Below, piece by piece: positions 33,651 to 35,018 of a stretch of DNA of 41,681 nucleotides (the first letter of the stretch is position 1; each line of letters opens with the position of its first letter). A program made the position numbers and the translations under genes. The DNA is taken from contig CAWIIV010000002.1 in NCBI GenBank assembly GCA_963836205.1, positions 1 to 41,681 on the forward strand, written 5' to 3'. The stretch comes from an uncultured Acidimicrobiia bacterium. Its GTDB lineage: Bacteria > Actinomycetota > Acidimicrobiia > Acidimicrobiales > AC-14. The notes under the pieces are model-generated. The model was not told where the DNA came from. It worked only from the letters and a program-made list of their open reading frames with translations, and ran no database searches.

Positions 33651-33706
33651 TCGGCATCCTTCTCCTCGCGACGGTCGAGAAGTATCAGCCACCCCGTCCC
33701 TCGGTC

Positions 33707-33728
33707 CGAATGTACGTTCGGCTACACT
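33707..33728 (+). promoter_or_regulatory. LexA/SOS-like box plus -10 element (leaderless)
   Basis: CGAATGTACGTTCG (one mismatch to CGAAC-N4-GTTCG), then TACACT 6 nt before ATG 33735. Confidence 0.7.
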
Positions 33729-33734
33729 GATCCC

Positions 33735-33914
33735 ATGACCGACGAGCCGATCGAACACAGACAGGATATCCAGCGAGCGACCGAAGGCAAGAGCCTCGAC
33801 CACGTTGGACACGCCCCGCCGCCGCGTGCAATCCCGAGCGAGCAGGTCGCGGTCTTGTTTGCACCGACCGTCCCGGCGTCGGTGACTCCTGTTTCAGCTA
33901 CCGATAAGGACTGA
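33735..33914 (+). CDS. Small Pro-rich peptide A, 59 aa
   Basis: MTDEPIEHRQDIQRATEGKSLDHVGHAPPPRAIPSEQVAVLFAPTVPASVTPVSATDKD; paralogous to peptide B with many synonymous differences. Confidence 0.75.
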   Translation: MTDEPIEHRQDIQRATEGKSLDHVGHAPPPRAIPSEQVAVLFAPTVPASVTPVSATDKD

Positions 33915-33937
33915 TCCCGGGTAAGGGCCGTCCGCCA

Positions 33938-34035
33938 ATGACGCCGCTTATTGCCATCGCCTTCGACACCTTCCTCGCCCCGACTCTCGAAGCTGGGCTA
34001 GCGGAACGTCGAAGGGCGTCGGTGGTACGCGTGCG
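33938..34035 (+). pseudogene. Truncated paralog of the 5' end of the DUF6338-like gene
   Basis: AIAFDTFLAP...AGLAERRRASVVR vs AVAFVIFLAP...AWLTEQRQASVRR. Confidence 0.65.
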
Positions 34036-34082
34036 TGTCATCACCCCTGCGGTGGCAATGGGCCAGCTTGTACCCTCCCAGT

Positions 34083-34105
34083 CGAATGTACGTTCGGGCT
34101 ACCAT
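34083..34105 (+). promoter_or_regulatory. Second LexA/SOS-like box plus -10 element (leaderless)
   Basis: Identical 14-mer CGAATGTACGTTCG, then TACCAT 7 nt before GTG 34113. Confidence 0.7.
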
Positions 34106-34112
34106 TCTGTCC

Positions 34113-34289
34113 GTGACCGATAATCCAATCAAACGGAAACGGACTCCCCTGCGAGGGACCGAGGGCAAGTGGAGCCTCGACCACGTTGGCAAGGCACCGC
34201 CACCGTGGGCAGTTCCAAGTGATCAGGTCGCAGTGTTGTTTGCCCCAGCCGAGCAAGCACCTGCGGCCCCAATCGAGAAGAAGGACTGA
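34113..34289 (+). CDS. Small Pro-rich peptide B, 58 aa
   Basis: MTDNPIKRKRTPLRGTEGKWSLDHVGKAPPPWAVPSDQVAVLFAPAEQAPAAPIEKKD. Confidence 0.78.
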   Translation: MTDNPIKRKRTPLRGTEGKWSLDHVGKAPPPWAVPSDQVAVLFAPAEQAPAAPIEKKD

Positions 34290-34295
34290 CCCAGG

Positions 34296-35018
34296 GTGCT
34301 TGTTGGCGGCCTGTCAAGCGCCGTCGCCTTCGTAATCTTCCTAGCTCCTGGCGCCTTGTGGGCCTGGCTGACCGAACAGCGACAGGCCTCGGTACGACGC
34401 TCCCAGGTTGTCGAGGCCGGACTGATCGCGCTGGCCAGTGCGGCCTTCAGTACCCCGGCGATCGTAGTCCTCGGTCTGCTGACGTGGTTTCTCGATCGGG
34501 ACCTGAGCAGTGTTGAGGCGTGGCTGGAAGGCTCGTCGATATCGGGCGAGGCTGCTGTCGGCTATGTGGCCCTTCTGCTTCTTCAGCTGGTACTCGCCCT
34601 TCTGACGACCTGGTGGGTCTTCCGCACCTTCGGCGACAAGCTGCTTGGCGACCTGGAGGTTCAGAAAGTCAGTGCCTGGACCAGCGTCTTTCGCTCCGCC
34701 AAGACGGACAAGACCTGGTCCGCCGCCGTGGAAGTCCTGCTCGATGACGGCTCCGTCATTCGTGGCATCGTCGAGGACTACACACCAGACCATGAGCTCG
34801 CCGACCGCGAACTCATTCTCTCGGAGCCCATTCTGCACGAGCAGGGCGGCGTTTCCTTGTTCGCCAATCGGCCGGCACCGGCCAGAGCCGTTGTCTCCGG
34901 CACCGCGATCCGCAGGATTGCTGTGCGCTACCTGACACCCGAGGACCTCGCAGGTTTGCAGCCCGCGGGCGCCGACCACCCGGCTGCGTACCGAGAGCCT
35001 GTGCCGCCATGTTCGTGA
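34296..35018 (+). CDS. DUF6338-like membrane protein (3 TM + soluble Sm-like beta domain)
   Basis: FLAPG in the first TM, three hydrophobic helices, SAW..VF, VEVLLDDGSVIRG, ELILSEP, ..I..IAVRY; family recalled, not searched. Confidence 0.72.
   Translation: MLVGGLSSAVAFVIFLAPGALWAWLTEQRQASVRRSQVVEAGLIALASAAFSTPAIVVLGLLTWFLDRDLSSVEAWLEGSSISGEAAVGYVALLLLQLVLALLTTWWVFRTFGDKLLGDLEVQKVSAWTSVFRSAKTDKTWSAAVEVLLDDGSVIRGIVEDYTPDHELADRELILSEPILHEQGGVSLFANRPAPARAVVSGTAIRRIAVRYLTPEDLAGLQPAGADHPAAYREPVPPCS

Follow-up and report, generated by a model that had tools for sequence, protein, structure and literature searches.

Unannotated tandem small-protein genes with LexA-type boxes upstream of a DUF6338 membrane-protein gene in an uncultured Acidimicrobiia bacterium

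What are two short and similar reading frames doing in tandem in front of a gene for a membrane protein of the DUF6338 family, and are they genes at all? We addressed this question for the window, i.e. the whole stretch of 41,681 nucleotides (nt) of contig CAWIIV010000002.1 (assembly GCA_963836205.1, from an uncultured Acidimicrobiia bacterium), in which the pair lies at positions 33700-34400. Our analysis shows the peptide reading frame to be protein-coding, with a core that is under purifying selection, and to represent a family that is new to the libraries searched. As to function, the explanation that we favour, and that we believe about as much as we doubt, is a DNA-damage-induced leaderless small protein that acts in trans with the DUF6338 protein, possibly as an antitoxin-like partner.

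Architecture of the two units

The elements of the two units and of the gene that follows them, in order along the window, are given below (aa, amino acids; ORF, open reading frame; AF2, AlphaFold2).

33706..33721, + strand: putative LexA-type SOS box 1 (CCGAATGTACGTTCGG), with the palindrome at 33707-33721, ending 1 nt before the -10 hexamer
33723..33728, + strand: predicted -10 hexamer TACACT, occupying -12 to -7 when counted from the A of the ATG
33735..33914, + strand: small-protein gene copy 1, ATG start, 59 aa
33938..34123, + strand: truncated DUF6338 N-terminus within a 61-codon ORF, homologous over approximately codons 6-32, original GTG start lost
34082..34097, + strand: putative LexA-type SOS box 2 (TCGAATGTACGTTCGG), with the palindrome at 34083-34097
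34100..34105, + strand: predicted -10 hexamer TACCAT, 7 nt before the GTG, at positions -13 to -8
34113..34289, + strand: small-protein gene copy 2, GTG start, 58 aa, predicted first cistron of an operon
34281..34285, + strand: AAGGA Shine-Dalgarno-like element, inside the last peptide codons and 10 nt before the DUF6338 GTG
34296..35018, + strand: DUF6338 membrane protein, 240 aa (Pfam PF19865, AF2 model, Foldseek)

The two tandem units are spaced ~376 nt apart and each contains the same 15-nt palindrome CGAATGTACGTTCGG, a -10 hexamer of the form TANNNT and an ORF of 58-59 codons. Their homology, as delimited by DNA alignment and a repeat finder, spans the box, the peptide and the first ~100 nt of the membrane gene, so that the two diverged units described in the initial annotation are indeed present. 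In unit 2, only 6 nt separate the peptide stop (34289) from the DUF6338 GTG (34296). Unit 1, as had also been proposed, kept its box, its -10 and its peptide while its membrane gene was truncated: ~27-30 homologous codons are left (AIAFDTFLAP... against AVAFVIFLAP...), the DUF6338 start GTG reads GTA, there is a frame-shifting indel of 8 nt, and the homology ends before unit 2. An in-frame ATG, preceded by an AAGGG element, has newly arisen in the stub, and its ORF could give rise to a product of 61 aa that contains one helix of weak hydrophobicity. The DUF6338 protein of the window is present in a collection of 5.8 billion proteins (as P0001) and neither peptide is; the peptides therefore went uncalled, as stated at the outset by the earlier reader of this DNA.

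Evidence for coding and the standing of copy 1

The two peptides are 60% identical and both contain the core that the initial annotation gave, differing by an in-frame indel of one codon (Trp). Over the 28 codons of the core, the differences are distributed 3/0/13 on codon positions 1/2/3, with nine synonymous as opposed to four non-synonymous codon changes. Nei-Gojobori estimates of omega (the ratio of non-synonymous to synonymous divergence) are 0.32 for the whole pair (56 codons) and 0.155 for codons 13-44, at a synonymous divergence (dS) of 0.73-0.87, while the N-terminal 12 codons give an omega of 1.5. The claim of protein-level selection on the core, for which this very calculation had been suggested, is thereby borne out. 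The terminal Lys-Asp that had been counted as part of the conserved pattern is shared as well, but as its codons (AAGGAC) coincide with the AAGGA element, this conservation need not be at the protein level.

The same comparison bears on another reading of the duplication, namely that copy 1 is a by-product of partial duplication or recombination of diverged cassettes and only copy 2 functions. We consider this improbable, though deserving of serious attention. The duplicated segment ends inside the DUF6338 gene, as a simple segmental event would, and the DUF6338 stub differs from the intact gene with an omega of 0.33 over 27 codons, close to the 0.32 of the whole peptide, implying that the units diverged while both were intact elsewhere; much of the divergence may thus predate the joining of the two units. 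Against a relic, copy 1 retains over ~230 nt a perfect box, a good -10, a start codon and an open frame, unlike the adjoining stub of ~110 nt, which lost its start codon and carries the frame-shifting indel.

A family of proline-rich small proteins

A profile of the two peptides, searched against 1.84 billion representative proteins, gave six matches at E <= 0.001, of which two long ones were set aside for their multiple low-complexity stretches. The remaining four are short homologues (57, 58, 62 and 96 aa; E 3.6e-11 to 9.5e-10) that follow the common pattern R-x-T-E-G-[KR]-S-L-D-x-V-G-x-[AV]-P-[PA]-P ... Q-[VI]-x-x-L-F-[AE]-P. A six-sequence profile against the 5.8 billion proteins returned the same four homologues and no others, and peptide 2 alone, in a word-indexed search of that collection, yielded no candidate. 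The search for homologues that the initial annotation had called for thus succeeded by profile, while tblastn with peptide 2 against plasmids and phages gave no match at E <= 1. In two of the homologues the frame is extended upstream and an internal Met aligns with the window start codon, which supports the short, leaderless start.

All six aligned members retain R, G, S-L-D, V-G, P, P, Q, L-F and P. The family is hydrophilic, with a grand average of hydropathy (GRAVY) of -0.5 to -0.85, contains 8-19% Pro (14-16% in the window peptides) and is acidic in five of the six members. The AF2 model of the peptide consists of coil and one short helix at residues 36-42, with a mean predicted local distance difference test score (pLDDT) of 65.7.

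One alternative reading takes the peptide to be a clamp-binding SOS factor, in which the helix Q-V-x-[VLS]-L-F would bind the beta-sliding clamp and the peptide would compete with polymerases at DnaN during damage. Q, L and F are invariant in all six members, the motif lies within the sole predicted helix and SOS control would suit a role directed at replication. Clamp-binding motifs are defined as Q-phi-x-[L/M]-[F/L] or Q-phi-x-[L/M]-x-[F/L] and typically lie in disordered regions, and the QVELEF peptide of Pol III alpha binds the clamp at ~1.4-3 uM (PMC11139829; here and below, a cited paper stands for that part of its text that was available). Three of the six members satisfy the second form (QVELLF twice and QIPLLF once), and these three resemble the published motifs in having Q-aliphatic-x-L-L-F within a peptide predicted to be disordered. 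However, both window peptides deviate at the fourth, [L/M], position, where they have V (one homologue has S), the motif is short enough for chance matches to come easily, the small ORFs beside distant DUF6338 genes described below lack it, and the conserved pairing with a membrane protein would be left unexplained. We therefore regard clamp binding as unlikely.

The prolines point to a different alternative, that of a leader peptide acting in cis: the A-P-P-P run would stall the ribosome and melt a hairpin hiding the DUF6338 ribosome-binding site, so that the peptide would matter only in the exit tunnel. Proline-based arrest peptides are known upstream of membrane-protein genes. Here, the x-A/V-P-P/A-P segment is conserved in six of six members and the 17 residues that precede it form the best-conserved block. 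The mRNA of unit 2 (34113-34340) is also predicted to fold with excess stability (z-score -3.05; one of 200 shuffles as stable), pairing GGGCAGUUCC, the segment that immediately follows the Pro codons, with the region of the stop codon and AAGGA ahead of DUF6338. The mRNA of unit 1, on the other hand, shows no excess of structure (z-score +0.63; 144 of 200 shuffles as stable), and copy 1 has no intact gene to regulate. Moreover, conservation runs 14 residues beyond the Pro run to the invariant Q, L-F and P, and the hydrophilic peptides have no hydrophobic N-terminal segment that could supply a release force. Together with the small ORFs found elsewhere (see below), these points leave the leader peptide a small share of probability. 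Rfam was also searched for a known RNA element at 33100-34500; it returned only the nearby tRNA and a sub-threshold match on the opposite strand of that tRNA, and this candidate was dropped.

Promoters and LexA-type boxes

The palindromes fit the actinobacterial LexA SOS box, the consensus used being that of Streptomyces venezuelae, a 16-bp tCGAAC-N4-GNNCGa derived from chromatin immunoprecipitation sequencing (PMC9380542). Compared to TCGAAC-N4-GTTCGA, boxes 1 and 2 have three and two differences, respectively, with one mismatch in the CGAAC core. A third box of this type lies further downstream, in front of a gene that is not part of the two units.

35963..35978, + strand: third putative LexA-type box (CGGAACAAGTGTTCGT), with the core GAACAAGTGTTC at 35965-35976, within the 118 nt that precede the caspase-helicase gene
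36027..39131, + strand: fusion of a caspase (peptidase C14) and a Hel308/HamB-like helicase (Pfam, NCBIfam, PADLOC HamB 4.6e-30)

How often such sites occur by chance should be considered. The form CGAAYNNNNGTTCG (CGAAY-N4-GTTCG) is found at two sites in the 41,681 bases, as compared to a shuffle mean of 0.15, and 6 of 100 shuffles reach two; since one site is a copy of the other, the pair amounts to a single event in this control. The shorter GAAY-N4-GTTC occurs at three sites in the window, all of them in promoter gaps of one 2.3-kb stretch, and gives four strand-matches as compared to a shuffle mean of 1.25, with four matches also attained in 8 of 100 shuffles. Between the units, all 15 nt of the box are the same, while the adjoining coding DNA has diverged to a dS of ~0.8.

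Boxes 1 and 2 end 1-2 nt before the TANNNT hexamer, which in turn lies 6-7 nt before the start codon, and no purine-rich (Shine-Dalgarno) element was seen before either peptide start codon. In mycobacterial promoters, ANNNT lies at -6 to -13 of transcription start sites (PMC6448022). The geometry of box, -10 and start codon thus points to a leaderless peptide mRNA, and the boxes themselves would be bound by LexA; both statements are read from the DNA sequence.

The DUF6338 protein

The intact gene downstream of copy 2 was correctly recognized by the initial annotation as DUF6338-like. Its product matches PF19865 with 70.7 bits, where the gathering cut-off is 26.5, at an E of 1.6e-19 over profile positions 5-204 of 205, and the nearest Atlas clusters are DUF6338 as well (score 0.95). 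In the collection of 5.8 billion proteins, five relatives of 48-70% identity were found, all from single short contigs. A search of phages gave no match. One of these relatives (P0005) and one of the peptide homologues (P0012) each come from a contig of 5,581 bases and are therefore probably neighbours.

The AF2 model of this protein was built from six sequences and is of moderate confidence (mean pLDDT 66.7, with 79-87 over most of the barrel). It contains helices at residues 3-28, 37-77 and 84-117, followed in the C-terminal part by a helix at 128-135 and strands at 142-149, 154-159, 172-183, 197-201 and 205-213. The protein thus models as three membrane helices and a C-terminal Sm-like barrel, and loop charges on the model suggest that the Sm-like domain is cytoplasmic. 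In a Foldseek search of the PDB, the best match of the model was 6am0_D, the Edc3 LSm domain (E 8.3e-4, target TM-score 0.73), and all of the matches that were listed and identified are Sm/LSm chains or spliceosome or decapping complexes that contain them (target TM-scores 0.6-0.73). Like Sm/LSm domains such as that of Edc3, the modelled C-terminal part has an N-terminal helix followed by five bent strands; unlike them, the barrel is fused to three membrane helices and has no sequence similarity to solved structures, the best match of a DUF6338 profile to PDB sequences being an unrelated protein at the level of noise (E 0.033). Sm proteins assemble into rings, and short linear peptide motifs are recognized by the Edc3 LSm domain. 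A combination of membrane helices with an Sm-like domain is likewise found in MscS channels, of which no structure was among the Foldseek matches listed.

Small reading frames beside DUF6338 genes elsewhere

To place the pairing in a broader context, DUF6338 loci were collected from plasmids by tblastn with the window DUF6338 and then with three of its matches, yielding 11 distinct loci from Rhodococcus, Paenarthrobacter, Curtobacterium and Arthrobacter. In seven of these, a same-strand hydrophilic ORF of 51-72 codons reaches up to or into the DUF6338 start. Six of the seven are from Rhodococcus and fall into three distinct sequence types, and the seventh is from Paenarthrobacter YJN-5. Of the small ORFs, five are annotated as hypothetical proteins and two are unannotated. 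Two pairs of the Rhodococcus ORFs give omega values of 0.29 and 0.33, i.e. purifying selection. Like the window family, these ORFs begin with M-[TA]-[DE], contain K/H-S-[LIM]-D-[SH]-[LV] and end in an acidic tail. No PPP run is found in the Rhodococcus and Paenarthrobacter small ORFs, which argues against the leader peptide.

A literature search for DUF6338 returned a single mention, made in passing (PMC10433244). In Pseudomonas stutzeri, three proline-rich small proteins that were detected by mass spectrometry are encoded in a predicted operon with a DUF6338 gene; they are of 36, 47 and 41 aa, with an isoelectric point of 10.4-11.2, 23-28% Pro and 44-114 spectral matches, and their ORFs lie in tandem on the same strand directly downstream of a DUF6338 gene of 194 aa (PMC10433244). 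The authors consider the small proteins to be species-restricted and possibly products of de novo genes and, in the available part of their text, propose no general link; the association of DUF6338 with small proteins thus has one experimental precedent and is not generalized in the literature searched. In P. stutzeri as in the window, tandem, paralogous, hydrophilic, proline-rich small ORFs that had not been annotated lie on the same strand near DUF6338. This likeness is one of gene arrangement and composition, and translation is proven by mass spectrometry in P. stutzeri, while the window proteins are known from their genes. For a leader peptide, proteins that are encoded downstream of DUF6338 and accumulate to such spectral counts are difficult to accommodate. 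As the small protein recurs beside DUF6338 in either order, and as a stand-alone copy survives in the window, a product acting in trans is to be preferred over a mere leader ORF.

Tandem proline-rich ORFs beside one membrane protein, here and in P. stutzeri, could also be precursors of released or antimicrobial proline-rich peptides that are induced like colicins, and DUF6338 would then be their exporter, a channel for their release or an immunity protein. Bacteriocin operons under SOS control are known. The P. stutzeri study itself raises antimicrobial roles and the presence of DUF6338 in biosynthetic gene clusters (PMC10433244). Nonetheless, the peptide sequences contain no signal peptide, double-glycine leader or Cys/Ser/Thr-rich core, Pfam and NCBIfam found no modifying enzyme, ABC exporter or peptidase-domain transporter in the cluster, and the predicted topology places the Sm-like domain in the cytoplasm. 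Export is accordingly given only a slim chance.

The initial annotation had looked to a peptide ORF conserved beside DUF6338 homologues. Small ORFs are there in seven of 11 plasmid loci and in P. stutzeri; comparison of the Rhodococcus ones with the window peptides detected no homology. Taken together, the window, the seven plasmid loci and the mass spectrometry data suggest that DUF6338 genes often come with small hydrophilic proteins.

The upstream DNA of the plasmid loci was considered as well. A relaxed pattern of the RecA-NDp (PafBC) type, TGTCR-N12-ANNNT, for which the promoter consensus was taken from PMC5656591, is found 55-75 nt before the small ORF in five of the eight loci scanned. 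As the pattern has one to four matches in each locus and its -10 starts with C in place of T, a RecA-NDp promoter in the Rhodococcus loci was kept as a lead only. In the Rhodococcus loci, the ~85 nt before the small ORFs (L001 3680-3764; also L002, L004, L005 and L006) are 95/100 and 85/100 identical, which is more than the conservation of synonymous sites. This stretch contains TGTCGG, 10 bases and CACACT (partially RecA-NDp-like) and two apparent hairpins, and has no Shine-Dalgarno element; it may represent a DNA-damage promoter of another kind, or else an RNA element.

A proposed mechanism and the points against it

The explanation that we favour, a damage-induced small protein that partners the DUF6338 protein in trans, involves one further gene of the putative operon:

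35009..35908, + strand: gene for a Schlafen/AlbA_2-domain protein (Pfam PF04326, E 5.1e-11)

The start of this gene precedes the DUF6338 stop by 10 nt, and translational coupling of the two overlapping genes is therefore likely. We propose that both copies of the small-protein gene are real, uncalled genes, each encoding a proline-rich and largely disordered cytoplasmic protein of ~58 residues, and each having its own promoter and a leaderless mRNA that would be repressed by LexA through the SOS box placed against the -10. The operon would run from small protein copy 2 through DUF6338 to the Schlafen/AlbA_2 protein, and the third SOS-type box would control the next gene, the caspase-helicase fusion. 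Copy 1 may serve as a stand-alone extra dose, its DUF6338 gene having been severed by partial duplication or recombination. DNA damage, or events that mimic it such as the entry of phage or plasmid DNA, would lead to LexA cleavage and switch on the whole cluster. The small protein would then act in trans as the cognate partner of DUF6338, as a regulatory or neutralizing subunit in the manner of antitoxin-first operons, with the extra copy biasing the ratio toward protection, and DUF6338 would act at the membrane, perhaps assembled as an Sm-type ring. The contact between peptide and DUF6338 and the effect of DUF6338 on the membrane are inferred. The initial annotation had offered peptides of the ligand, antitoxin or protease-substrate kind, roles that the analysis does not establish, and the array of specificity variants that it had envisaged would here consist of only two copies.

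The resemblance to leaderless toxin-antitoxin operons is what favours a regulatory or neutralizing partner. Mycobacterial toxin-antitoxin operons are predominantly leaderless and, like the window, the leaderless type II operons among them can show a small first cistron, a tightly linked second gene, a mobile island and the retention of an orphan copy of the first gene (PMC8485053). Comparison with type II systems in general shows both agreement and difference. The small gene comes first and is tightly linked (the 6-nt gap); on the other hand, the second gene encodes a 240-aa integral membrane protein with no known toxin fold, and control would be by a LexA-type box rather than by autoregulation. 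Small-protein and toxin loci of the Escherichia coli SOS response, namely tisB, dinQ, symE and yafNO, have a LexA box in the promoter and a membrane-acting component; there, the membrane toxin is the small peptide, which antisense RNA usually keeps in check. In the window, as opposed to loci of the tisB type, the small protein is predicted to be soluble, the larger partner being the one in the membrane.

Several results weigh against this explanation and should be considered when referring to it. The omega of the copy pair may reflect divergence that preceded the joining of the units, in which case it says little about the present-day function of copy 1, and copy 1 could be a recent relic. The peptide and this branch of DUF6338 are rare: neither was found in 185,579 representative genomes, where the peptide alignment gave 15 pattern matches and the DUF6338 alignment 47, with none confirmed in either case. 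The peptides matched no family in Pfam, NCBIfam or PADLOC and had no usable Atlas match, i.e. they contain neither the DNA-binding domain expected of a type II antitoxin nor any other domain recognized by these resources. Among the plasmid loci, a convincing small ORF is absent on either side of DUF6338 in four of 11, and the GAAY-N4-GTTC box was seen upstream of the DUF6338 module in none of the eight that were scanned (L009-L011 were left out). Alignment of the window peptides to the Rhodococcus small ORFs by hhalign gave a probability of 0.8% and an E of 0.073, with K-S-[LIM]-D alone matched; as this is not significant, homology with these ORFs is not shown. The small proteins of P. stutzeri are encoded downstream of DUF6338 and are basic (36-47 aa), whereas those of the window are encoded upstream (58-59 aa) and belong to a family that is acidic in most of its members. 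No contact between peptide and DUF6338 was supported by any prediction made: the one complex prediction, of the peptide with DUF6338 residues 118-228, scored 0.06 and 0.08 relative to a mark of 0.32 and, having been run without controls, gave no verdict and was not used either way. Finally, the use of an actinobacterial LexA by the host would follow from gene content and G+C.

If the small protein does regulate or neutralize the membrane protein, the locus would represent a new family among the stress-induced membrane modules of mobile islands, as well as a further example of functional small proteins that annotation has missed. In any case, the analysis yields a two-gene module, a plausible inducing signal (DNA damage via LexA) and a structural lead in the modelled Sm-like cytoplasmic domain. 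A broader combination of these elements can also be conceived, in which DUF6338 and disordered, proline-rich small proteins would form a widespread two-part membrane module, the assembly of the Sm ring would be gated or loaded by motifs of the small proteins, and this branch would also bind the sliding clamp. The factor induced by damage or foreign DNA would then tie the replisome clamp to the membrane or block it there, amounting to a new replication-targeting checkpoint or abortive-infection device. We regard this combination as highly improbable.

The surrounding gene cluster

The units lie in a cluster of defence-like genes that forms an island of low G+C beside a tRNA gene. The window as a whole has 69% G+C with strong third-position G+C, and contains the core genes dnaX, recR, aspartokinase, aspartate-semialdehyde dehydrogenase and tadA. 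Directly past tRNA-Ser(CGA), the composition profile falls from ~0.71 to 0.57-0.65 G+C.

33174..33262, + strand: tRNA-Ser (CGA) (ARAGORN, Rfam tRNA); the island starts just downstream
33340..33657, - strand: C-terminal remnant of an IS481-family transposase (tblastn against plasmids)

The identification of the latter is based on a plasmid feature annotated as an IS481 family transposase, to which the ORF matches with 47.7% identity over 62% of the query (E 4e-10). The ORF had no Pfam or NCBIfam match, and BLASTP against one IS481 transposase gave no match.

Downstream of DUF6338, no terminator-like site was seen on the + strand before 39400. The Schlafen/AlbA_2 gene, which directly follows DUF6338 in the window, does so in none of the 11 plasmid loci. 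The caspase-helicase fusion is a single gene of 1,034 codons, with the caspase in the N-terminal part and a DEAD-box helicase. Its best PADLOC matches are HamB (4.6e-30) and the candidate PDC-M23B (3.7e-29), and the caspase part matches the NCBIfam 'EACC1-associated' model with a score under the cut-off. This gene may be a one-protein Hachiman-like defence gene. At 39491-41309, where the island has its far end, two genes overlap, of which one has a weak helix-turn-helix match and the other a weak match to AbiEii (Pfam E 4e-4, under the cut-off); together they may form an AbiE-like pair. PADLOC recognized the helicase, the caspase and, weakly, AbiEii on the island, and nothing else.

Anti-phage operons that are controlled by DNA damage are known and are run by a dedicated regulator. 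By analogy, the Schlafen/AlbA_2 protein, the caspase-HamB-like helicase and the putative AbiE-like pair could be seen as a comparable set of genes behind damage-type operators, although control in the window would be exerted directly by the host LexA rather than by a dedicated regulator. Genes with caspase-family, CHAT and TIR domains also occur within 2-3 kb of DUF6338 on plasmids of Paenarthrobacter and Curtobacterium (L007 990-4489 and L009 4026-4687), echoing the caspase-helicase beside DUF6338 in the window. At the other end of the island, between the tRNA-Ser and the IS481 remnant, a direct repeat of 20 nt (TGTCGCGAGACATCCCGGAC) is present at 33268-33310 in two copies that are 95% identical and 23 nt apart, and these repeats may be recombinase arm-type sites or the scar of an attachment site.

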